Positions 4,644-56,581 of a stretch of 64,000 nucleotides of DNA are shown in pieces; position 1 is the first letter of the stretch; the number at the start of each line of letters is the position of its first letter. The DNA comes from an uncultured virus (IMG/VR IMGVR_UViG_3300037067_003438) (taxonomy: Duplodnaviria; Heunggongvirae; Uroviricota; Caudoviricetes), in IMG/VR virus record IMGVR_UViG_3300037067_003438. One strand, 5' to 3'. Below the pieces are notes generated by a model that was not told where the DNA came from, made no database searches, and worked only from the letters and a program-made list of their open reading frames with translations. The translations under genes and the position numbers were made by a program.

Positions 4644-4996
4644 TAGAATATATTCCTTAAAATATTTTGTGTTAATTCATCTGTATCTATATTTAATAAT
4701 GGCACCCAATATGCATCTTTTAATTGTGTATCTAGTGGAATAATAGATGTATATATAAGTAATAAACTATCACCATAAATAAAAAAGTTTTTAGGTTGAG
4801 TGCTAATCCACTCTTCATGTAAATCAATATATTTAGATTTTATATCTGATAATACAGTGTGTATAATATTATTATCTAGTGTAAATGTTGGTAATTTTAT
4901 ATAATTCTTATCTAAAGATAGGGCGTATTGCTCACCCGTTATCAAATTTTGCCCCGTGGCAACAAATACTATTTTTACTGTATATTGTTTTGTCAT
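4643..4996 (-). CDS. Hypothetical protein
   Basis: 117 aa ORF abutting neighbours. Confidence 0.5.
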   Translation of the reverse strand: MTKQYTVKIVFVATGQNLITGEQYALSLDKNYIKLPTFTLDNNIIHTVLSDIKSKYIDLHEEWISTQPKNFFIYGDSLLLIYTSIIPLDTQLKDAYWVPLLNIDTDELTQNILRNIF

Positions 4997-5524
4997 TCAC
5001 TCACCAAATTCTTGTACATATTGTCTAATTGTATTAAATGCGGTAGATATAACACACTCTACAGCTTGACGGGTTACACCAAAATAGTTTCCCGTTTCCT
5101 GTAGATTCATTCCCTCAAAATAATATTTAGTAATATAATCCCGCTGTTTTTGTGTTACACCCCTGGTATTTAATAAATGTGAGATATATTCTTTATTATC
5201 TATATTATCTAACAAATTTTTACCAAATTTAGTTTCCACGTCTTGAAGTGGATGACATGGTATATTTTTTAAATTTTTACAATAAATTTTCAATAAAGCC
5301 GTTTTTACATATACACATCTTAAAGTAGACAATAAACAGGGTTTGTTTTCAAATCCATAATAATCTTCTTGATACTTCCAATCCGCACACATAATGGCTG
5401 TTGCCACTTCACCAATTTTATCATCGTCTTGTATTATTTGTGGTGCTAATTTTCCTCCGAATTTTATAATCATTCTTTTGGCTTGATTTAAATAAGATTG
5501 TAGAGTTTCATATTGTTGAGTCAT
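4997..5524 (-). CDS. Sigma-factor-like protein (region 4 HTH)
   Basis: C-terminal TQKQRDYITKYYFEGMNLQETGNYFGVTRQAV matches a sigma70 region 4 HTH. Confidence 0.7.
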   Translation of the reverse strand: MTQQYETLQSYLNQAKRMIIKFGGKLAPQIIQDDDKIGEVATAIMCADWKYQEDYYGFENKPCLLSTLRCVYVKTALLKIYCKNLKNIPCHPLQDVETKFGKNLLDNIDNKEYISHLLNTRGVTQKQRDYITKYYFEGMNLQETGNYFGVTRQAVECVISTAFNTIRQYVQEFGE

Positions 5525-6597
5525 TAATAATCCAATAATTGAGTGATTGTTTTAGCAGTATTATTCCAGGAAAATTGTTTGGCTGTTTCTACTCCTTGTG
5601 GATTATCGTGGATTCTATTTTTATACATATTACGCATTAATACCACACCCTGTTCAATTTGATCTTCGTCTATTTTCGCCCAGGAACCCTGCCCAAAAAA
5701 CCATTTATTGTCATAGGCTTTTTCTGTATCTATAATATGAATTAATTCTGCATTAGCTGGTGTACAAAATTCTGTGTGGGAAGAATGGTTTGTAGCAATT
5801 ACTGGTTTACCACATGCCATCATTTCTAATAATTCAAGATTCCAACCCTCTGCACGACTGGGAAAAATACCGCAATCTGCTTGACGCATCAATCCCGCTA
5901 CGTGATATTGGGTTGGGCATCTATCTATTAATAAAATTTTATCACCAAGTGGACTATTTTTATATAATTTAACCCATTTAGCAGTTTCGTCCTCATTTAA
6001 AAATGGATTCCCGGTTAGTAAGTTCAATTGAACATCATCATCTTTGGTAAACGCCCGATTAAACATTTCCACTAGTATATCATGCCCCTTACGAATTTCC
6101 CACTTTCCAGAATTGAAAAAGGTGTATGGGCGATTACCTTGTTCGGCTAGACCATGTTTACCATTTGGATAGAAGATTTTTTGGTCTACACCCAATGGGA
6201 CTACATTGACCTCGATATTAATTCCACTGTCCAACACTATTTGTTTTGCCCATTTTGAACACACAAATAATTCATCTTGATTAGATAGGTGGTGTTTTTC
6301 ACGTTCGGTAAAAGTATCTAATTCAAAAATAGGGAAACCTATATGCCTACCCTGCCCAACGGTTTCGGCAAGTGCGAATTGGTGCCACAATCGTATAGAA
6401 GGAGCCTGACTATCATATGTAGCTTGATTAGCTATCATTTGATTGAATATTGGTATATTTAATTCATCTTCTAACTGAATATTCCCTATAGGAAATAATG
6501 AAACATTATGACCAGCTTTATATAGTTCTTTTGCTATATTAGTACCTGCAACACCATAACCAAGTCCATTTATTGGAAATATTGTATTAATATTCAT
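5524..6597 (-). CDS. Glycosyltransferase, GT4-like
   Basis: RKGHD, PSRAEGWNLELLEMMACGKPVI (EX7E) motifs. Confidence 0.88.
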   Translation of the reverse strand: MNINTIFPINGLGYGVAGTNIAKELYKAGHNVSLFPIGNIQLEDELNIPIFNQMIANQATYDSQAPSIRLWHQFALAETVGQGRHIGFPIFELDTFTEREKHHLSNQDELFVCSKWAKQIVLDSGINIEVNVVPLGVDQKIFYPNGKHGLAEQGNRPYTFFNSGKWEIRKGHDILVEMFNRAFTKDDDVQLNLLTGNPFLNEDETAKWVKLYKNSPLGDKILLIDRCPTQYHVAGLMRQADCGIFPSRAEGWNLELLEMMACGKPVIATNHSSHTEFCTPANAELIHIIDTEKAYDNKWFFGQGSWAKIDEDQIEQGVVLMRNMYKNRIHDNPQGVETAKQFSWNNTAKTITQLLDY

Positions 6598-33898: not shown

Positions 33899-34930
33899 TT
33901 ATCCATATATATATTTCTCATAAACTGGTTTTAATTTTTTCCATGAATTTTCTTCAGCCCACGCTTTGCCTTGTAAAGAAAGGTTACTGATATCCTTATT
34001 ATACCACAAATCCACCATTTTGGCAAGGTCTTTAGGGGAAATATTGGCGGATTGATAAACTACTGCCCCGTCACCCATACTATCGTATGATGTTACTGGA
34101 ATTAATAATTCTTTTGGAAGCCATGTGTTAATAGGATACCTATCTCCAGCCATAATTGGCATACCAGCCGAAAAAGCCTCTTGAATTGGTAGGGATGACC
34201 CATTATATTTTTCGGGAAAAAGAAATACGTCACCAACATATAGGTCAGATTCAGATAATTCACCAATTTGTGGAATAATTCTGATGTCGTGTTGAGCGTG
34301 TGTCATTATCAAATGTTCTAGTTCTGGGCGTCCTCCTTGTGCGCGAATAGATAATAATATTGGACTATCAACATATTGCATTGCCTCTAGTATTTCTTTT
34401 GTTCCATTGCGAAAATTTGAACAATAACCCGCATTGTGGGTAAAAATTTGAGCCTTTGTGCGTAAAACCCACTCTATATTGTGTGGTGCTGGCACAGGAA
34501 TGAACACATGCGGAGTTTTAGGACATAATTGTTCGCACAAATCAAATTCTAATAACGATGGGCAGATTACACAATCGGCGTATTGATAATATCCAGGATG
34601 GGTGCATTCGTGCATAGGAATAAGAACTATTCTCTTACCTATTTCTTTTATCTTATCTAATGTGTAATATTGACTAATACCCTTCCAACCATAGGCATAA
34701 GGGAGATATTGTTCAAGAATAAGAAGAATGTCGATATCTTTAAGAAATCCTTCCAAATCCCCTTGCGGGTAAACAATTAAATCGTGAAATCTATCCTGAA
34801 TTATCGGCTCTTTATCTGTGGGTTGGATTATAACGCGATCTATCAAGCCATTTTCATAAAAATCCCGAGCCATTACACCAAGACCAGTGTTGTTTGAATA
34901 GACTATAGAACCGACTATTGGTTTCGTCAT
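33899..34930 (-). CDS. GT4-like glycosyltransferase
   Basis: TGLG, RNGT, FPEKYNGSSLPIQEAFSAGMP. Confidence 0.75.
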   Translation of the reverse strand: MTKPIVGSIVYSNNTGLGVMARDFYENGLIDRVIIQPTDKEPIIQDRFHDLIVYPQGDLEGFLKDIDILLILEQYLPYAYGWKGISQYYTLDKIKEIGKRIVLIPMHECTHPGYYQYADCVICPSLLEFDLCEQLCPKTPHVFIPVPAPHNIEWVLRTKAQIFTHNAGYCSNFRNGTKEILEAMQYVDSPILLSIRAQGGRPELEHLIMTHAQHDIRIIPQIGELSESDLYVGDVFLFPEKYNGSSLPIQEAFSAGMPIMAGDRYPINTWLPKELLIPVTSYDSMGDGAVVYQSANISPKDLAKMVDLWYNKDISNLSLQGKAWAEENSWKKLKPVYEKYIYG

Positions 34931-41445: not shown

Positions 41446-42900
41446 TTAATTTAAAGTACGTTCATATTCTGCGATATATCGTAAAAATCCATCCGACCAG
41501 GCGGAAAGTTCGGCTGTCCATAGCCCGCGATAATTTATACCATGTTTATGGCTCGACACATCTATGATATAATTTTTCTTACCATAAGGTTTGGGAACAC
41601 TATTATATCTATCACAATCCTGCGAGTCACTAAAAATGATTACACGATCTGGTTGTTCGGGTTCATGTTCGCGTAAATACTCACAAACTTGACGGGTAAA
41701 AATTCCACCACCACCCAATTTATTTCTTGCTTCTAAAATTTTATCTCGTAAAGCAAATCCTCTTACATTTTGAATTTTTTGGGTAGCATGAATAACCCGC
41801 GAATCATTACCAGCAGTTGCATAGACAGAAATGTGGTCACAGCATTCCGCCGCTAGAACAGACAAACTGGCGGCAATATCCATACGGGTATAGTCAGTAT
41901 TGTTATTTAATTTCTCCATCATTGAACCACTTGTATCTACAACAAACACCGTATGTCCATCAAGACGTGGCCATTGTGCCGCACACCTAAACATTAAATC
42001 CTCAATTTCTCGACCCCATTCTTTGGAGTTATCATATGCTCGCAAAAAATCAATAGGTAAAAGCATGTCGGGATGACAATTAGCAAAAGCATTTTGGATT
42101 AACTTACGTGACACATTAACCTGTTCCATATTACGAATATTCTTCATAAACGCAAGAGCAGGAAGTTTTTCTTCATTAATAAGATGTTCCCATACAGCTT
42201 TCTTGTCAGATTCGGATTTTGCAGCCGATAATCCAACCTCCCAAGTATCGGGAGTTGCTAATTCGCCCTCTTTCAATTTCTTAAATAGGATGGATTGGGC
42301 TAAATCTTTTGGCTTTGGATGAACTAAACGCAAGGCATCACGTAATTTCACCTCTTTGGTTTTGCCCTGCCACTTAGCCATAGAATATTCGCCATAATTA
42401 TTAAAGGCAGTAGCCAAACCCAATTTAACTTGGGCAGGTAGGGATTTCTTCCCCTTATTATCAGCCCAGTAAATAGAAAGAAATTCGGTAATTTCGTCTG
42501 GGCGTTTGCACACCTTAGCCAAAACTGGGGCTACAGGATAACCCTGACGGGCTAATTCACGCACTAACATAAGTGGAACGTGACGTAATTTTTGAGTATA
42601 GCGAGCTTCAATAGCCATATCCGCCACAATATTAGGATCTACTTGTGGAATTAATTCTTTTATTTGTTCTACAATGGTTTGTCCATCGACGTAGAAATTA
42701 TCCTCCCAAAGTAGACAGGTCATTACAAGACGGCGTAGATTGGCTTCCGATGGCTGTTTAGCTGCTTTAGCACCACCACCTCCAGCTAGACGTACAGGAC
42801 GTTCAACCGTTTTAACAGCAAAAGCATAGGGATCTAAAACTATAACTTTTTCTGTTGCAAAAATTCCGCTTTTAGTCGTTTTCTTGTTCAAGCGTGCCAT
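41446..42900 (-). CDS. TROVE/Ro60 (Rsr-like) RNA-binding protein with vWA domain
   Basis: LWED.FY, R...KLRH.P, RPDE..E, F..Y..AK, LRD.LRLVHPKP, PDTWE..LS, MIDAS VDTSGSM, IFSDSQ. Confidence 0.92.
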   Translation of the reverse strand: MARLNKKTTKSGIFATEKVIVLDPYAFAVKTVERPVRLAGGGGAKAAKQPSEANLRRLVMTCLLWEDNFYVDGQTIVEQIKELIPQVDPNIVADMAIEARYTQKLRHVPLMLVRELARQGYPVAPVLAKVCKRPDEITEFLSIYWADNKGKKSLPAQVKLGLATAFNNYGEYSMAKWQGKTKEVKLRDALRLVHPKPKDLAQSILFKKLKEGELATPDTWEVGLSAAKSESDKKAVWEHLINEEKLPALAFMKNIRNMEQVNVSRKLIQNAFANCHPDMLLPIDFLRAYDNSKEWGREIEDLMFRCAAQWPRLDGHTVFVVDTSGSMMEKLNNNTDYTRMDIAASLSVLAAECCDHISVYATAGNDSRVIHATQKIQNVRGFALRDKILEARNKLGGGGIFTRQVCEYLREHEPEQPDRVIIFSDSQDCDRYNSVPKPYGKKNYIIDVSSHKHGINYRGLWTAELSAWSDGFLRYIAEYERTLN

Positions 42901-43066
42901 AATTTTTTCCTTTAAATTAGGTATTAAAAAAAGTCTATTACTATTTCGGCGGGGTACAGCATTGTATACGCTGTGTCGATTACTTAATTAATTGGTAATT
43001 ACTCCAATATTTTTTTCGTCTCTACCCGACTCATCGGTACACCCCCGGAATAATAATAAACAAAAA

Positions 43067-43151
43067 AGAACTGGAATAATCGTAAAAACTGGATTCTTAC
43101 CAAGGAACCCGATAAATGGAGGTGATGTAATTTTTACTGTCGCCAAGTTCT
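43067..43151 (-). ncRNA. Y-RNA-like ncRNA 1 (minimal)
   Basis: AGAACU-U-GG...CC-AGUUCU stem, GUAAAAA/UUUUUAC stem, UUACAUC and AUUCC motifs shared with three paralogs. Confidence 0.75.
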
Positions 43152-43159
43152 ACATTAGT

Positions 43160-43188
43160 ATTGTAGTTTACAGACGGGTGTTTGTCAA
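43160..43188 (-). promoter_or_regulatory. Sigma70 promoter TTGACA-17-TACAAT for Y-like RNA 1 and TROVE
   Basis: Predicted +1 lies within 2-3 nt of the RNA 5' end. Confidence 0.75.
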
Positions 43189-43202
43189 GAGGAAATAAGA
43201 AA

Positions 43203-43276
43203 TACACGAGAATTAGCAATTAAACCTTTTGTTTAGAAACCATTTTCTGATGAAAGTCTAATTTTCACTACGTGTA
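43203..43276 (-). ncRNA. Y-RNA-like ncRNA 2 (minimal)
   Basis: UACACG-U-AG...CU-CGUGUA (compensatory AG/CU), AAUUAGAC/GUUUAAUU, UUUCAUC. Confidence 0.72.
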
Positions 43277-43278
43277 AG

Positions 43279-43367
43279 CTCCGAGGAGAGGATGCGAGCC
43301 TCCATACCGTTCTCACGGAATACACGATTTTAACAGAATCGCCGCCTGCCAGTTAGCGCACCTCGGA
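43279..43367 (-). tRNA. Atypical tRNA-Asn(GUU) with long variable arm
   Basis: U1-A72 acceptor UCCGAGG/CCUCGGA, G73, anticodon stem CGAUU/AAUCG with loop CUGUUAA, ~21-nt variable region, T loop CUCGCAU. Confidence 0.75.
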
Positions 43368-43373
43368 AAAAAA

Positions 43374-43445
43374 GCACTTCGGAATAAAGCAATCGGGATA
43401 TAAAACCTTTAATGTAGATGTAATCTCAACCTCCACCAGAAATGC
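43374..43445 (-). ncRNA. Y-RNA-like ncRNA 3 (minimal)
   Basis: GCAUUUC-U-GG...CC-GAAGUGC, UUACAUC, AUUCC; GTGTATATT promoter-like motif ends 6-7 nt upstream. Confidence 0.72.
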
Positions 43446-43488
43446 CTATTAAATATACACTAAAAATCATTTTAATCAAAAAAATCAC

Positions 43489-43531
43489 CATTCGGACAAT
43501 TATGGTGTATAATATAACATTCGGACAATTA
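43489..43531 (+). repeat. 14-bp direct repeat CATTCGGACAATTA flanking a GGTGTATAAT promoter
   Basis: Copies at 43489..43502 and 43518..43531; promoter motif at 43504..43513. Confidence 0.85.
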
Positions 43532-43549
43532 AACAATAGGGATGATTAT

Positions 43550-44146
43550 ATGACTGAATTGGGTAAAAAAATTATTGAGTTACGTACACAAAATCCAAAA
43601 TATAGTTATGATTATATATCAAGATTATTAAATTGTTCGCCTAGTACGGTATTTTATCATCTGAATGATGGGCGTAGAACAAAAATGTTGTTAAGAGCTA
43701 AGATACATGATAAAAAAAATGGTAATCAACCACACTATATTTTATATAGAAAACTAAACCATTTTAGACAAAACGATAGAAATATATCTTTAACACAATT
43801 TAATTATAAAAAATCATTACATTATTATATTAGAACTAAACTTTTACAATTTACAAGAAGGAACAAAAATATGGCAAATGATGCTACACTAGATGCAGTA
43901 AAGTTAAAAGTTGGAAATAATCCTATATGTTATTTAACAGGCGATCCATTGGATTTAACTAAGCCACGTTCTTTTAGTTTCGACCATATAGTTCCAGTAA
44001 GTCGTGGTGGAGATAATAGTATTGATAATCTTGGTATTTGTACACGCATGGCAAATATGTCTAAAACTAATATGACCGTTGATGAATATTTAAATTTATG
44101 TAAAAAAATATTAGAACATAATGGTTATAAAGTAGAAAAAATATAG
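43550..44146 (+). CDS. HTH plus HNH endonuclease (start likely MTELG)
   Basis: YSYDYISRLLNCSPSTVFYH HTH; CYLTG...FDHIVPVSRGG.N..DNL..C...N..K HNH. Confidence 0.85.
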   Translation: MTELGKKIIELRTQNPKYSYDYISRLLNCSPSTVFYHLNDGRRTKMLLRAKIHDKKNGNQPHYILYRKLNHFRQNDRNISLTQFNYKKSLHYYIRTKLLQFTRRNKNMANDATLDAVKLKVGNNPICYLTGDPLDLTKPRSFSFDHIVPVSRGGDNSIDNLGICTRMANMSKTNMTVDEYLNLCKKILEHNGYKVEKI

Positions 44147-44271
44147 AGGAATTGACTGGCAGTCTGTATTCGGGTTTTACCACTAAACTATATTTGGCGA
44201 ACCAAACAACTGGACTCGAACCAGTATCACGTCATTAATAGTGAAGTAAGATTGTTCGACACCATCTATAT
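44141..44271 (-). ncRNA. yrlA: YrlA-type Y RNA with circularly permuted tRNA-like module
   Basis: Terminal stem AUAUAGA-U-GG/CC-UCUAUAU; inside, 5' to 3': T arm ACUGG-UUCGAGU-CCAGU, acceptor-like stem UGUUUGG/CCAAAUA closed by UUCG, D arm UA-GUUU-AGUGGUA-AAAC. Confidence 0.85.
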
Positions 44272-44286
44272 CTTAATCTCACACCT

Positions 44287-44315
44287 ATTATACGTCGGGC
44301 ACCGCAGGTTGTCAA
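44287..44315 (-). promoter_or_regulatory. Perfect sigma70 promoter TTGACA-17-TATAAT for the YrlA-like RNA
   Basis: Exact consensus 16 nt upstream of the RNA 5' stem. Confidence 0.85.
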
Positions 44316-45114: not shown

Positions 45115-46245
45115 TTATTCTTCATTTTCAAGTAGAAAATCGGGATTAACCACCTTGAACGAAATGCCCTTTTCAACATTTCGGCACACTATACCCTCTT
45201 GCTTTTGAGTAGGTAATAAGATAGAGTTACCTTTAGAATATTCAACAAGTTCGGGAATAGTTAAGGGTACCACGTAATTTGTTTCAAGAATCGGAACCGT
45301 TGGAATCTCATACTTGTCCATTATAGCCTTTATTTCCACGGTGTCAAGGGAAATTTCTGGATAGATCAAATTAAATACCCGCAATTCATAGTCGGATAAT
45401 TTATATTTATTTTTCTGAATTCCAGGACCTAAAATCTCACCCTGTAAGACAAGGCGATCCGATTTACCAATTAATTCCCGTAAAACTTTCTTTATTTGAT
45501 ATTTTTCTACGATCTGATGGTAAAAATCACCAAAACTTCCTTTAAAGTATTTATTTTTAAAAGAATGAGTTGTTAGATTAACATTACGTGAACAATAACC
45601 AAAATTATATTTATGCCAAAACCAAAGATAGGGAATTTTTTCTAAATAAAAAGTACTGCTTGTTCCATCAGTTTTTTCGGAAATAATTAATGGAATTTTA
45701 TTCTCTTGAACATATCTAAACACCTCTGGCATTGCCTGAATACGTGTTTCGTCGGTCTTTTTAATCCAAGCGGGCCACCCATGGCGTTTCTTTTGCACGA
45801 ATAGTTTTCTATACCAGGCAAATTTATAGAGGAATTTTCCTAATTTTGTGCGGGGTTGTTTATTCTTGTGGTCTACTAAATGATCGAGTTGATTTTCTGA
45901 ATCATATTTAGTAATATGTAGATCTTCTGTGACATCATCACCTTCTCTATACAATATTGGAAATTCACCATGGGGTAAAATGGATAATGGCATAACCAAA
46001 CCCATAGAGTAAACCCCTCGCATTTTCATAATTTTTATGCGAAATTTCTTCTGTCGCAAAAACTCAAAGTGTGGAATATCTGGACACACACTATCGCACT
46101 CTATGTATATAACTTTATCTCCTTCTTTAAATTCATCCTTTTTAACAATACATTGCCAACCCAGTACCGTGGCAAGTACAATACGATCTGCTCCGATGAT
46201 GGGTTCTATCTTATTAATTACTTGAATTGAAGCTAATTTACGCAT
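45115..46245 (-). CDS. ATP-dependent RNA ligase (DRB0094-like) with N-terminal OB module
   Basis: RKLASIQ..I.PI.GAD.I, KTDETRIQ, EKTDGTS (motif I), SRN, QGE..GPGIQKN, EGIV, SFKV.N..FLL. Confidence 0.9.
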   Translation of the reverse strand: MRKLASIQVINKIEPIIGADRIVLATVLGWQCIVKKDEFKEGDKVIYIECDSVCPDIPHFEFLRQKKFRIKIMKMRGVYSMGLVMPLSILPHGEFPILYREGDDVTEDLHITKYDSENQLDHLVDHKNKQPRTKLGKFLYKFAWYRKLFVQKKRHGWPAWIKKTDETRIQAMPEVFRYVQENKIPLIISEKTDGTSSTFYLEKIPYLWFWHKYNFGYCSRNVNLTTHSFKNKYFKGSFGDFYHQIVEKYQIKKVLRELIGKSDRLVLQGEILGPGIQKNKYKLSDYELRVFNLIYPEISLDTVEIKAIMDKYEIPTVPILETNYVVPLTIPELVEYSKGNSILLPTQKQEGIVCRNVEKGISFKVVNPDFLLENEE

Positions 46246-48054: not shown

Positions 48055-49110
48055 TTATGGTTTATATCCTTTTCTTAAATAAAATTCAAATCTTTCTTTA
48101 GCAATTTGTTCATCGTATACCCCGCCCCAATATGGGTTCCACGTCCAATAATCAAAGTGTTCATCCATCCATTTGCTCTCGCAATTTCTATATATTGCTC
48201 CGTTTAAGGGATAATCAATAATAATATTTGTGGCGACTTTAACCCCTAATTCACGTAGATTTTGTAGTCCACTTATTGTGTATAAGGTATTATATTCATT
48301 TCGATTCATATCTCGAAGAATATCGACATTATCACTTTGAATTGGACAATGTAGAATATTTAGATAGCCATCTTTTGCTAAATCATCCAAAACATCATAT
48401 AAAGCAGCAAATGTTGTTGGTTCTAAATTTCTAATTGAAATTAATTTTTTATATCTTTTTGCAATTAGACACCAATCTTTAACCTGTAATCTTGTTGGAT
48501 TATCTGATATTAACACGACGTTATCGTGATCTAAAAATTCTTTAATTTGTAAGAGGGCATCGGCTTCGTATGATTTCCCTCTAGTATGACGAATGGTACA
48601 ATATTTACATTGTCTTGAACATCCAGCCCCGATCTTGAGCGGATACATATTACGAAATAGATTTCCCTGGTCTAGCGGATTTTTACTGGGCGTTTTAATC
48701 CAGAATGGGTTCTGCCAATCAACACCTTGACATATATGATTTAAATTATCACAATTAATATCCCGAACAACATCCAAACGTCGAACATAATCTGGTAATG
48801 GAATATCAAAACGCTGTGCTAAACATCCACCCATATAGAATGTTTTTTCTGGATACTCCTCATGTAATTTCTTAATAGTTTGAATGTCATTATAAATAGC
48901 CAAATCAGTTACCTGGCAACCCAATACGATTACATTGCGGGCTTGTTCTATTGTACAGGTGAAATTATAGTTAACCGCCCAGGATAAAAAATCCGTATAG
49001 ACCGACATACACGCTGTACACAGACAATAATTTTGGAATAATTTTCCGCTATTTAAATCTTGAGCGTCGTATAATGATCCACAACCAAATTTATTTGTGA
49101 TAATTTTCAC
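48055..49110 (-). CDS. Radical SAM methylthiotransferase-like protein (MiaB/MtaB/RimO family), no TRAM domain
   Basis: N-terminal Cys motifs (CTAC, LGCQV, GGCLAQR), GCSRQCKYC, HCPIQS...IL.DMNR. Confidence 0.75.
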   Translation of the reverse strand: MKIITNKFGCGSLYDAQDLNSGKLFQNYCLCTACMSVYTDFLSWAVNYNFTCTIEQARNVIVLGCQVTDLAIYNDIQTIKKLHEEYPEKTFYMGGCLAQRFDIPLPDYVRRLDVVRDINCDNLNHICQGVDWQNPFWIKTPSKNPLDQGNLFRNMYPLKIGAGCSRQCKYCTIRHTRGKSYEADALLQIKEFLDHDNVVLISDNPTRLQVKDWCLIAKRYKKLISIRNLEPTTFAALYDVLDDLAKDGYLNILHCPIQSDNVDILRDMNRNEYNTLYTISGLQNLRELGVKVATNIIIDYPLNGAIYRNCESKWMDEHFDYWTWNPYWGGVYDEQIAKERFEFYLRKGYKP

Positions 49111-54919: not shown

Positions 54920-56581
54920 TCACGATAATGTTTCCCTTTTCATTCTCCAAATTGGGATTGTGGTTATTACTAAAGTCATTAAATATACTAAGGCTTGAGT
55001 TAACACCCATCCTGTCTTTATCTTATCCCGAATTTTGAGTTTTGTCAACTGCCATTTTGACAGGTTGGTGGATTCTGGTTTTCGATCCCACATATCAAAT
55101 ATTTTACCCTGCCCAAGCAGCAGGGGGTGTGTTTTAAGCCTTGGGGCAATCCAGAAGCCCATTGCCATAAATAATGCTGGGAACCACCTATTGAGCAAGC
55201 ACAATCGTTTGAGCCTGGGTATCTGGTACCGTAGGCTATTGGACACCCTCCAGCACTCCCAATAACTTTTTTCTATTTCTTTTCTGGACATATTTGGGTG
55301 ATCTAATACTGGATAGGACGAATCACCCGAATTAATTTCACCCCATAGAATAGTTTTACCATCATTTCTAATTTTGGATTGTAGTGGGCTCCCAAGGGCG
55401 GGACTTAATACCGTAAATAATGGCCAGAATCCATCCTGACATAGTTGATTAACTTCTTCCTGGATAATTTTGGGGGTATGATGTGGTAAGCCAACCATTA
55501 TTGAACCAAGGGGAACGATTTCTTTTTCCCACAATTTATCGCATAATTCTTTATATTCTTTAGGATTGTTATTAAATTTACCTATAGTTTTTAATCCCGC
55601 TTGATTAGTTGTCTCAACCCCAATAAATAGGTGGGCGACACCAGCCTTTTGACATAAATCTAAAAATTCTGGAATTTTATAGCATTGTGTGTCGGCTTGT
55701 AATGAAAGGCTAATATCATAGAAATTTCTATAATGAGCCAACATTTTTAAAAATGCGGAACAATTTTCACTTCTAGCACCATTATCTCCAACGGGAAACA
55801 ATATATTGGGTTTTTTAACACTTAAATTATTAAATAAATATATGCGTATTTTTTCTATATTTCTAACTCTAGTTTTTGAACCGCTTAAACTTCCAATCCC
55901 ACAAAATTGACATCCCTTTCCAGCCTCCCAAAATGGGCAGCCAGATTGTTGATCGAAAGAAATGGTGTCAACAGTATACCCCTTATGTGGTTTGAATTTG
56001 GGAATTTCGGTTTTATTTAAATCTTCCCATCCACCCTCATATAAATGATAATAATTTTCCTCTAAAATATTTTTCAAACATTCGCCATATTTATCGCTAT
56101 ACGCATCACCATGATAAAGAATAAAATCCTCGTTCCTAAATTTCTCTAATTCATCGGTGATTTTTCCTGGATGGGGACTACCAGCGGGCACGCCATCTAG
56201 CATTTCTGCCAATGTCTCATTTACGTGTGGACCCCCAATTATACAGGTCGCCCCTAATTTCTGCCATCTAGACATTGTATCAAATGAAAAGGGAATTTGA
56301 TAGCTCATAACTCCACACATAACCAGAATAATTTTCGTATTCGGACCATGGTTTTGTTGTTCTAATTTATGTAGTATATCGGCGTCGGATTTGAGTTGTA
56401 AATTTAATTTATATACTTCGTGCGGAATATTTAATTTTGTTAGATTTTTCTCTGTTAAATCTTCCATTACGTCTAAAACATAGGGTGGCATAAACAAGCC
56501 ACCCTTAAATCTTCGCGCAAATCCGTTGTCATCATAACCAGTAGGATAAGCGACAACCGCTAAAACATTAGTATATTCCAT
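54920..56581 (-). CDS. B12-binding radical SAM protein
   Basis: IIGGPH cobalamin domain, GCPFWEAGKGCQFC, GDN, FIGVET, MVGLP. Confidence 0.8.
   Translation of the reverse strand: MEYTNVLAVVAYPTGYDDNGFARRFKGGLFMPPYVLDVMEDLTEKNLTKLNIPHEVYKLNLQLKSDADILHKLEQQNHGPNTKIILVMCGVMSYQIPFSFDTMSRWQKLGATCIIGGPHVNETLAEMLDGVPAGSPHPGKITDELEKFRNEDFILYHGDAYSDKYGECLKNILEENYYHLYEGGWEDLNKTEIPKFKPHKGYTVDTISFDQQSGCPFWEAGKGCQFCGIGSLSGSKTRVRNIEKIRIYLFNNLSVKKPNILFPVGDNGARSENCSAFLKMLAHYRNFYDISLSLQADTQCYKIPEFLDLCQKAGVAHLFIGVETTNQAGLKTIGKFNNNPKEYKELCDKLWEKEIVPLGSIMVGLPHHTPKIIQEEVNQLCQDGFWPLFTVLSPALGSPLQSKIRNDGKTILWGEINSGDSSYPVLDHPNMSRKEIEKSYWECWRVSNSLRYQIPRLKRLCLLNRWFPALFMAMGFWIAPRLKTHPLLLGQGKIFDMWDRKPESTNLSKWQLTKLKIRDKIKTGWVLTQALVYLMTLVITTIPIWRMKRETLS

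Follow-up and report, generated by a model that had tools for sequence, protein, structure and literature searches.

A tRNA-Asn(GUU) with a long variable arm lies between Y RNAs in an uncultured virus and belongs to a covarying phage tRNA family

An asparagine tRNA gene with a fifth, stem-forming variable arm lies inside an array of Y RNAs in a 64,000-nucleotide stretch of DNA from an uncultured virus (IMG/VR record IMGVR_UViG_3300037067_003438; hereafter the window). Judged by its sequence, the element is a real phage tRNA for asparagine. The best explanation, in which we place moderate confidence, is that it is a working member of a family of phage tRNA-Asn(GUU) that carry this arm. Most likely it is a working asparagine tRNA that is co-transcribed with the Y RNAs on either side, Y2 and Y3, and acts as the mark for their processing. 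The features of the locus, with the models named here (R2 for Y RNAs, R3 for the tRNA family) described below, are:

41446 to 42900, minus strand: rsr, coding for a Ro60 ortholog of 484 aa with TROVE and vWA domains (Pfam TROVE, E 6e-12; VWA_2)
43064 to 43153, minus strand: Y4, a further Y RNA (R2, 24.5 bits, E 2.6e-5)
43200 to 43278, minus strand: Y3, a short Y RNA (R2, 43.7 bits, E 2.4e-11, the best match in the window)
43279 to 43367, minus strand: long-arm tRNA-Asn(GUU) (ARAGORN, fold, R3 and covariation)
43372 to 43446, minus strand: Y2, a short Y RNA (R2, 20.9 bits, E 3.5e-4, the third best match in the window)
43452 to 43479, minus strand: weak promoter-like site, TTGATT-16-TATATT (consensus scan, 9/12)
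43551 to 44146, plus strand: HNH homing-endonuclease-like gene (Pfam HNH_4, HNH_5 and HNH)
44139 to 44272, minus strand: YrlA-type Y RNA (R2, 12.6 bits, E 0.14, with a 69-nt insert, rank five)
45115 to 46245, minus strand: RNA ligase gene, PHA02142 OB fold and RNA_ligase domains (Pfam, E 6e-26 and 6e-16)

Position 1 of the tRNA is 43367 and its G73 is 43279. ARAGORN, which reported five tRNA-like genes in the window, called tRNA-Asn(gtt) at 43278-43367 on the minus strand and drew it as a full cloverleaf with a fifth arm. The acceptor stem reads UCCGAGG/CCUCGGA, giving U1-A72, and is followed by G73 and then C-U-U, so that CCA is not encoded. The D arm is CGCU-AACUGGCA-GGCG, with A14, A15, G18 and G19 present, and the anticodon arm is CGAUU-CUGUUAA-AAUCG, whose loop CUGUUAA exposes GUU at 43332-43334. 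The variable region (43304-43324) is 21 nt long and reads UGUAUU-CCGU-GAGA-ACGG-UAU, with a 4-bp stem closed by a GAGA loop at 43307-43318. The T arm is GGAGG-CUCGCAU-CCUCU, and its loop lies at 43292-43298. Canonical cloverleaf geometry is found throughout the helices (acceptor 7 bp, D stem 4 bp, anticodon stem 5 bp with U33 in a 7-nt loop, T stem 5 bp), and all 25 pairs are standard pairs in the R3 alignment. The T loop departs from the canonical U54-U55-C56-R57-A58: it reads C54 U55 C56 G57 C58 A59 U60, with C54 and C58 in place of the usual U54 and A58, and G18G19, U55 and C56 are kept. The original prediction had proposed an Asn-type tRNA (GUU, U1-A72, G73) with a long variable arm and a non-canonical T loop. 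The sequence reading bears out the isotype, as do the ARAGORN call and the R3 match; the two T-loop substitutions are read directly, and the arm proved genuine, being both folded and covarying.

Taken alone, this single sequence makes a weak case for a tRNA. The minimum free energy fold of 90 nt gave the same cloverleaf with the fifth hairpin at −29.1 kcal/mol, no better than shuffled sequences (z = −0.75), and fold energy alone is therefore no proof of a tRNA. The Rfam tRNA model (RF00005) returned no match at 43278-43367 at its gathering score (29 bits), and in a 3.5-kb search the tRNA-Asn stayed unmatched even at E ≤ 10. The same model also misses a relative at a metagenome locus (L042) whose T loop is canonical, which makes the Rfam miss a property of the family. 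Since Rfam missed both of the members that were checked, phage tRNA inventories are probably undercounted.

Relatives were collected with successive sequence patterns. The first, which combined the anticodon loop with the arm, found nine IMG/VR contigs and one metagenome locus (L042), and ARAGORN gives a tRNA-Asn(gtt) of 90-93 nt in each of them, within clusters of 5 to 24 tRNA genes. When the genomes of 185,579 prokaryote species were searched with this pattern, a single record came up, an 8.5-kb contig with 12 tRNAs in 5 kb that itself looks like phage DNA. Because the first pattern had a fixed arm sequence, a D-arm pattern was used next, and yielded three new members with the arm stems GGG/CCC, CCUU/AAGG and CGGUA/UACCG. 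A third pattern, in which the arm was left free and UGYA, UAU and GGUUC were fixed, gave 46 loci, 41 of them with a match of at least 80 bits to the first model. In total the family holds 47 records with 41 distinct sequences, nearly all on uncultivated phage contigs, where the relatives occur within clusters of 5 to 24 phage tRNAs. Because the search patterns prescribe the anticodon loop and arm flanks (and GGUUC too for 41 relatives), constancy in these parts and the rarity of odd T loops are partly built in. A 16-base T-arm pattern matched 24 loci, about the number estimated by chance. In a blastn search of 50,697 named phage genome records, no match was found for the intergenic region, the window tRNA or a family member, and a full-text literature search found no description of a long-arm tRNA-Asn in phages.

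The alignments show that all five helices covary, the extra arm among them. In a MAFFT alignment of 14 members, which was not fitted to a model, 99.7% of cells were paired and 20 of 25 pairs changed on both sides; none of 500 shuffles reached the observed values, and partners slid by 1-3 columns paired in at most 51% of cells. Among the 40 relatives without the window copy, 98.4% of cells were paired (63% in shuffles, at most 51% with slid partners), and 22 of 25 pairs changed on both sides, including all four arm pairs; this alignment was fitted to the model and leans toward structure. The variable region is 18-25 nt long across the family, and the arm is a hairpin of 3-5 pairs, often with a GNRA loop, between conserved single-stranded flanks. 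Its stem differs from member to member (CCGU/ACGG, GGG/CCC, CCUU/AAGG, CGGUA/UACCG, CCCC/GGGG), and the flanks UGYA and UAU stay constant; the window copy fits this rule, with UGYA-NN on the 5' side, UAU on the 3' side and A15 with U48. The original prediction was to be given up if homologs revealed the arm as a recent, non-conserved insertion. The arm is instead conserved in 40 relatives and, as its pairs covary there, it is old and selected as a helix. A covariance model built from the 40 relatives with the window excluded (R3) matched the window copy over positions 1-91 with 89.1 bits (E 2.8e-20), and its next match in the window was an ordinary tRNA at 24.7 bits.

These results bear on the possibility that the element is a decaying pseudogene or a chance cloverleaf, a reading to which the Rfam miss at E ≤ 10, the shuffle-level fold energy and the degenerate T loop would lend themselves. 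We regard it as very unlikely, given a score of 89 bits against a model that had not seen the window copy, 25 of 25 standard pairs and the failure of Rfam on the L042 member, canonical T loop and all. Moreover, identical DNA occurs in contigs of two further metagenome runs, with no differences over 43072-43745 and 43219-43369, which shows that the tRNA gene is not an assembly error.

We then considered whether the long-arm RNA carries what an asparagine tRNA needs. According to PMC9976931, bacterial Asn identity lies in the anticodon and G73, with U1-A72 required for amidation by GatCAB. This set (G34 U35 U36, G73, U1-A72) is fully present in the window copy. All 41 distinct members have GUU and G73, and position 1-72 is U-A in 33 of the 40 relatives and A-U in the other 7. 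The body is of class-I type: its D stem has four pairs, and A15 goes with a U immediately 5' of the T stem. That the long-arm RNA may do the job of tRNA-Asn is best supported by comparing the L042 locus with a second phage contig, L043; the two are 99.7-100% identical over the two longest blocks they share (574 and 395 nt). Before the same tRNA-Gln, L042 has the long-arm tRNA-Asn and L043 an unrelated, ordinary tRNA-Asn of 74 nt. This near-identical pair constitutes a natural experiment on the role of the arm.

Asparagine codons are in heavy use in the window, where AAT is the second commonest codon (5.08% of 14504 codons) and AAC accounts for 1.07%, so that AAU and AAC together make up 6.2% of phage codons. 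The other window tRNAs, Thr UGU, Pro UGG and Ile UAU, fit favoured A-ending codons, and ARAGORN found no other true tRNA-Asn in the window. An ordinary tRNA-Asn stands beside the long-arm gene in three of five complete jumbo-phage genomes (CheckV 93-100%), and the two are probably not simply redundant. A private phage synthetase was looked for and rejected: PF00152, the domain of AsnRS and AspRS, occurs in none of the five complete jumbo-phage records that carry the long-arm tRNA, and no PF00152-type domain was found in the 75 ORFs scanned (13 + 62) of the 109 in the window. Charging would fall to the host AsnRS, or to a non-discriminating AspRS with GatCAB, through GUU, G73 and U1-A72, and the charged tRNA would read AAU and AAC.

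Compared with the canonical class-I tRNA-Asn(GUU) of E. coli or phage T5, the element shares GUU, G73, U1-A72, the 7/4/5/5 cloverleaf, A14, A15-U48 and G18G19, and a location in phage tRNA clusters is common to the family and canonical phage tRNA-Asn. The family differs by a hairpin of 12-20 nt inserted in the variable region, to which the window copy adds C54, C58 and G9, and the Rfam tRNA model stays below its threshold. In the textbook scheme, long variable arms belong to Leu, Ser, Tyr and Sec tRNAs alone, and the D arm of these class II tRNAs has a 3-bp D stem. The covarying arm on Asn tRNAs of dozens of phages means that this textbook rule is broken systematically in viruses. The original prediction had described the arm as class-II-like. 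This is accurate for the stem-loop variable region of more than 10 nt, which is common to the family and class II tRNAs (Leu, Ser, bacterial Tyr and Sec), but the likeness is superficial: the isotype is Asn, the D loop is of class-I type, and the D stem has four pairs (10-25, 11-24, 12-23 and 13-22; 99.4% paired). The family arm, with its 3-5 pairs, also has a longer unpaired 5' spacer and the conserved UGYA and UAU flanks. Arm geometry taken from ARAGORN brackets was too noisy to discriminate the family from Ser, Leu and Tyr tRNAs.

A long arm raises the question of whether SerRS, or another synthetase for long-arm tRNAs, might charge the RNA with the help of G73, so that AAU and AAC would partly be read otherwise. 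G73 is the serine discriminator too, a switch from Leu to Ser identity needs A73 to become G73 (PMC9976931), and a variable region of 18-25 nt would suit such an enzyme. Yet the acceptor pairs U1-A72, C2-G71 and C3-G70, like the D stem with its four pairs, fit an Asn or class-I tRNA, the arm stem has only 3-5 pairs with about 4-6 unpaired bases 5' of it, and the family conserves the whole Asn identity set. The long-arm gene also replaces an ordinary tRNA-Asn in a near-identical phage, and misreading of the second commonest codon, AAT, would be costly. Serine charging of the long-arm tRNA is thus unlikely, and this explanation as a whole appears highly improbable to us. The allo-tRNAs that Mukai and colleagues are said to have described in 2017 resemble the family in having long variable arms and anticodons of other amino acids; they reportedly combine serine identity with an acceptor/T geometry of 8/4 or 9/3, in contrast to the 7/5 geometry and Asn identity set found here.

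The surroundings of the tRNA were characterized with R2, a model built from 11 short RNAs of metagenome loci around Rsr homologs (80 loci surveyed), which share a closing stem, UGGUGNAG, an inner stem, UUACUUCG and a CGCYUGUUCCC 3' strand. Run on both strands of all 64 kb with filters off, R2 placed its three best window matches, Y3, Y4 and Y2, around the tRNA-Asn. The fourth match (34207-34240, E 0.017) is collapsed and is regarded as spurious. Y2 to Y4 were recovered only by the structure-aware R2 and were missed by a Y RNA HMM based on sequence alone (best match elsewhere, E 0.27), and at gathering score no Rfam family besides tRNA matched in the window. Over the 80 rsr loci, R2 gave 165 matches in 67 loci, and that all 165 are on the rsr strand supports its specificity. 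Y2 has a closing stem GCAUUUC/GAAGUGC, which is also seen in its hairpin fold, and the motifs UGGUGGAG and UUACAUC. Y3 has a closing stem ACACG/CGUGU from 43275, an inner stem AAUUAGAC/GUUUAAUU and a UUUCAUC motif (fold z = −1.9). Y4 has a strong promoter of its own at 43160-43188 (TTGACA-17-TACAAT, 11/12 consensus match).

The YrlA-type unit is preceded by a perfect promoter match (TTGACA-17-TATAAT, 44287-44315, 12/12). It contains a permuted tRNA-like domain made of a V arm, a T arm (CUGG-UUCGAGU-CCAG), a closed acceptor-like stem and a D arm, and its 134 nt align with the YrlA-type units of 131-145 nt of six other rsr loci. ARAGORN miscalled part of it as tRNA-Asn(att) at 44201-44275, and the Rfam tRNA model matches it in part, with 19 bits. 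Two possible RNA runs show high depth at 44206-44243; it consists of short T-arm matches with loose ends and is taken to come from RNAs of other organisms. According to PMC4201824, YrlA has the order V, T, closed acceptor and D, the one seen in this unit, with both ends in the Ro-binding stem. YrlA-type Y RNAs and the window tRNA are alike in same-strand coding next to rsr and in tRNA-like D and T arms, often with a V arm. YrlA is permuted, with a closed acceptor-like stem and without an anticodon loop, whereas the acceptor stem of the window tRNA is free and its anticodon arm normal. Nor does R2 match the tRNA, although it matches both of its neighbours; the element is not a YrlA.

The originally proposed placement inside a Y RNA array stands, with R2 matches on both sides of the tRNA, and this array lies upstream of rsr, a Ro60 gene on its own strand. 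Rsr has 4797 homologs (best identity 65%); among named sequences it is closest to the TROVE proteins of crAss001-like phages (43-44% identity), and no close relatives were confirmed in IMG/VR. Between YrlA and Y2 lies the HNH gene, on the strand opposite to the RNA array; its start at 43551 was chosen by eye, the ORF listing giving 43442-44146. The RNA ligase gene, 0.8 kb upstream of YrlA and on the same strand, lends the locus an RNA-repair context. Both this ligase and a MiaB-like radical-SAM enzyme are encoded less than 6 kb from the tRNA.

The junctions between the tRNA and its neighbours are tight. The closing helix of Y2 ends at 43373 and is followed by five U before tRNA position 1, and the Y3 helix begins three bases after G73. 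The closeness predicted originally is confirmed, with spacings corrected from 2 nt to these five U on the Y2 side and from 6 nt to three bases on the Y3 side. The same layout was found elsewhere. ARAGORN made 95 tRNA calls in the 80 rsr loci, 82 of which do not overlap a Y RNA. Twenty-two of these, in 16 of the 80 loci, lie at most 12 nt from a Y match, and nine, in 7 loci, have a Y RNA on both sides. The Y-adjoining isotypes are Asn, Met, Tyr, Thr, Arg, Pro, Gln, His and Glu. Among the 22 calls are four with anticodons unusual for bacteria (Ser act, Phe aaa, Tyr ata) or with odd lengths of 84-86 nt, including a Ser tga, and some of these four may be tRNA-like without being true tRNAs. The Y-tRNA-Y layout is a recurrent design that is not tied to Asn.

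Punctuation of transcripts by tRNAs is the mitochondrial model, and the tRNA cluster of phage T4 has co-transcribed small stable RNAs. The window resembles such transcripts in having a tRNA a few bases from RNAs that would be freed by RNase P and 3' processing; it differs in that these RNAs are Y RNAs of a phage that bind Ro60. In M. smegmatis, YrlA and YrlB come from one precursor that is processed, and YrlA is an RNase P substrate (PMC4201824). The tRNA probably acts as a cutting mark that separates the Y RNAs. In line with the mycobacterial case, Y2, the tRNA and Y3 would be made as one transcript, possibly from the weak promoter-like site at 43452-43479. This site has its predicted start at the 5' end of Y2 and is a candidate promoter, with 12 such sites found where 8.1 are expected. 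RNase P would cut at tRNA position 1 and leave Y2 with a U tail, a 3' endonuclease would cut after G73 and free Y3, and CCA would be added by the host CCA enzyme. Release of the Y RNAs by tRNA processing had been suggested in the original prediction; the recurrence of tRNA-Y junctions in 16 of 80 loci supports it indirectly. The alternation of tRNA and Y RNA, in the window and in these loci, suggests how Y arrays are cut into units and ties phage Ro60 particles to tRNA biology. No published description of tRNA-punctuated phage Y RNAs was found in the sources at hand, and the supplements of PMC4201824 may list such loci.

An obligate link between the long-arm tRNA and Ro60 was rejected. The tRNA is not confined to Y arrays, most relatives being in ordinary phage tRNA clusters, tblastn found no rsr within 3 kb in 10 loci, and TROVE occurs in 2 of 10 records.

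The window copy is peculiar within the family. Compared with the consensus, the window copy has G9 (not A9), U13-G22 (not U13-A22), C54 and C58, with its helices intact, and such altered tertiary positions beside intact helices could mean that translation is no longer the selected function here. Among the 15 members not selected on the T loop, three have unusual T loops: the window copy, L115 and L110. In L115, the nearest relative, the T loop reads GGCAGGU and the D loop has AG where GG is expected. Its acceptor stem is that of the window apart from one G-C to G-U change, and its arm loop has 4 nt. The T stems are compensated, GCUGG/CCAGC in L115 and GGAGG/CCUCU in the window. In L110 the T loop AUCGUAC has a swapped but pairable A54/U58. 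L115 lies on a 39-kb fragment (estimated completeness 11%) in which no TROVE gene was found; on the tRNA strand, R2 gave 52 bits at 2411-2484 and 44 bits at 1214-1283. By eye, a Y RNA also seemed to follow the L115 tRNA directly; it was rejected, as R2 scored at most 3.3 bits there.

In the lineage of the window and L115, the RNA might then serve outside translation, as a processing mark for the Y array or as a partner or decoy of the Ro60-Y particle; a weakened elbow might make it a Ro60 ligand. The substitutions at G9, G22, C54 and C58 fall at conserved positions beside intact helices, the L115 T and D loops are abnormal although its T stem is compensated, and both copies stand in arrays with Y RNAs. 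Junctions of tRNA and Y RNA are common, and Ro60 binds misfolded small RNAs (PMC4201824). Nevertheless, the anticodon loop, GUU, G73 and U1-A72 are intact, which a mere processing mark would not need, and the window copy retains G18, G19, U55 and C56. Asn codons are used very often and the window has no other tRNA-Asn, and the L110 T-loop variant comes with no Y context shown. We consider a non-translational role a real but rather unlikely alternative. The element is best described as a tRNA-Asn in its working and a punctuation tRNA by position, without a class II body and distinct from the YrlA module. What is new is the placement within a phage Y RNA array, the recurrent alternation of tRNA and Y RNA, and the degenerate elbow of one sub-lineage.

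On a working tRNA-Asn, the arm would be a feature of shape and not a change of the code. Our leading guess is that it sets the phage tRNA apart from the host tRNA-Asn, which would let it escape a tRNA-targeting factor such as a defence nuclease. Nuclease resistance, a decoy role and charging by SerRS had been put forward as possibilities in the original prediction. According to PMC12409363, the AriB nuclease of PARIS targets tRNA-Asn(GUU), Lys UUU and Thr UGU, with weaker cleavage signals for Thr CGU, His GUG and Pro UGG; the tRNAs of phage T5 counter PARIS, and its tRNA-Asn helps it to escape AriB. Long arms also occur on other class-I isotypes in the same clusters as the family (Lys UUU, Lys CUU, Pro UGG, Trp and Arg ACG), and the long-arm Arg ACG adjoins a normal twin. 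The overlap of long-arm Asn, Lys and Pro with the AriB target list is suggestive, although the comparison is post hoc and from few loci, and the long-arm Arg and Trp lie outside the list. Counting against escape from defence, about half of the members keep UAAU near the AriB cut site, a motif taken from the same paper. A wider proposal is that extra arms on class-I phage tRNAs are a widespread counter-defence against tRNA-cleaving nucleases and that here, on one transcript with Y RNAs and beside an RNA ligase, they form part of a single tRNA-damage response module. We offer it tentatively, as a possibility that falls well short of probable.

The arm might instead be a handle for a dedicated protein, such as a modification enzyme, a chaperone or a repair factor (the RNA ligase or the MiaB-like enzyme), that marks phage tRNAs as the phage's own. 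In its favour, the stem covaries between conserved UGYA and UAU flanks, similar small arms are present on Lys, Pro, Trp and Arg tRNAs of the same clusters, and the RNA ligase and the MiaB-like enzyme lie within 6 kb. No protein was found that co-occurs with the arm, however, an enzyme of AsnRS/AspRS type is found in 0 of 5 complete genomes, and the constancy of the flanks is partly forced by the search patterns. We judge this quite unlikely and retain escape from a tRNA-targeting factor as the leading guess.

Across the contigs surveyed, extra arms were seen mostly on Asn tRNAs, also on Lys, Pro, Arg and Trp, and often together with an ordinary twin, and two more long-arm Asn designs were seen in the records of relatives. 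The window itself has a GC content of 34%, with 105 of 109 ORFs on one strand and 4 of 109 on the plus strand. Among its gene products are ThyX, ClpP, a sigma factor, sugar-modifying enzymes, Dam, dCMP deaminase and homing endonucleases, and it looks like a segment of a large phage genome.

The second of ARAGORN's tRNA-Asn calls in the window, a 'tRNA-Asn (att)' at 44201-44275 on the minus strand, is not a tRNA; the call covers the tRNA-like domain within a YrlA-type Y RNA. This unit has its own sigma-70-type promoter, a perfect match at 44287-44315, and Rfam searches reported no Y RNA family over its span, either at the gathering score or at E <= 10. A minority-strand gene resembling HNH homing endonucleases interrupts the Y RNA array, and directly upstream of it lie two direct copies of CATTCGGACAATT; these may represent the gene's control site or its insertion scar.

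Features of the Y RNA array in the window
44139-44272, minus strand: YrlA-type Y RNA, with its tRNA-like domain at 44201-44275
43551-44146, plus strand: HNH homing-endonuclease-like gene
43494-43532: two direct copies of CATTCGGACAATT

Matches to the structure-aware Y RNA model were also found in Bacteroides phage crAss001, cr106_1 and PhiCrAssBcn24, within an unannotated gap of ~900 nt located 3' of the TROVE gene (best E 3e-8). The matches downstream of TROVE probably represent crAss-like phage Y RNAs.

Y RNA model matches
crAss001 (locus L001): 4964-5050, 5058-5138 and 5537-5685
cr106_1 (locus L002): 4875-4960 and 4971-5049
PhiCrAssBcn24 (locus L003): 4874-4960 and 5518-5663

According to their record annotations, crAss001 carries a 91-nt 'tRNA-OTHER (Leu|Ile)(taat)' (L001, 170-260). 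In cr106_1 the annotation lists an 88-nt tRNA-Ile (L002, 789-876) together with a tmRNA (886-1189), these two lying a few kb away from the TROVE gene. Such annotated genes are further over-long tRNAs among Ro60-bearing phages.

Two more designs of long-arm tRNA-Asn(GUU) were identified, at 961-1047 of locus L176 and 1566-1650 of L183. Both are distinct from the window family; they have a 3-pair D stem and a class-II-like D loop, and in one of them the first base of the anticodon loop is abnormal. The jumbo phages with these designs also carry a member of the window family. In a pair of near-identical phage contigs, the tRNA cassettes are swapped, with a long-arm tRNA-Asn in one (L042, 517-608) versus an ordinary tRNA-Asn in the other (L043, 264-337), which provides a natural pair for testing what the extra arm does.

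Extra variable arms also occur on Lys UUU, Lys CUU, Trp CCA, Pro UGG and Arg ACG, all class-I isotypes, in the same phage tRNA clusters. The extra-arm Arg ACG gene immediately adjoins a normal Arg ACG twin, and the variable region of a Thr UGU gene in these clusters is long and unpaired.

Class-I tRNAs with an extra variable arm or a long variable region
L110: 4178-4262, 5169-5251 and 2697-2789
L112: 3154-3237 and 2660-2750
L176: 227-317
L111: 1743-1825

Among the neighbouring protein genes, two radical-SAM genes lie near the Y RNA array and an RNA ligase, and their products are possibly phage tRNA-modifying enzymes. In L115, which holds the closest relative of the window tRNA, an ORF ends ~10 nt before the long-arm tRNA-Asn, and its C-terminal motif looks TnpB-like by eye.

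Protein genes
Window 48055-49110, minus strand: MiaB/MtaB-like methylthiotransferase (UPF0004 + Radical_SAM)
Window 54920-56581, minus strand: second radical-SAM protein
L115 3076-4221, minus strand: 381-aa ORF
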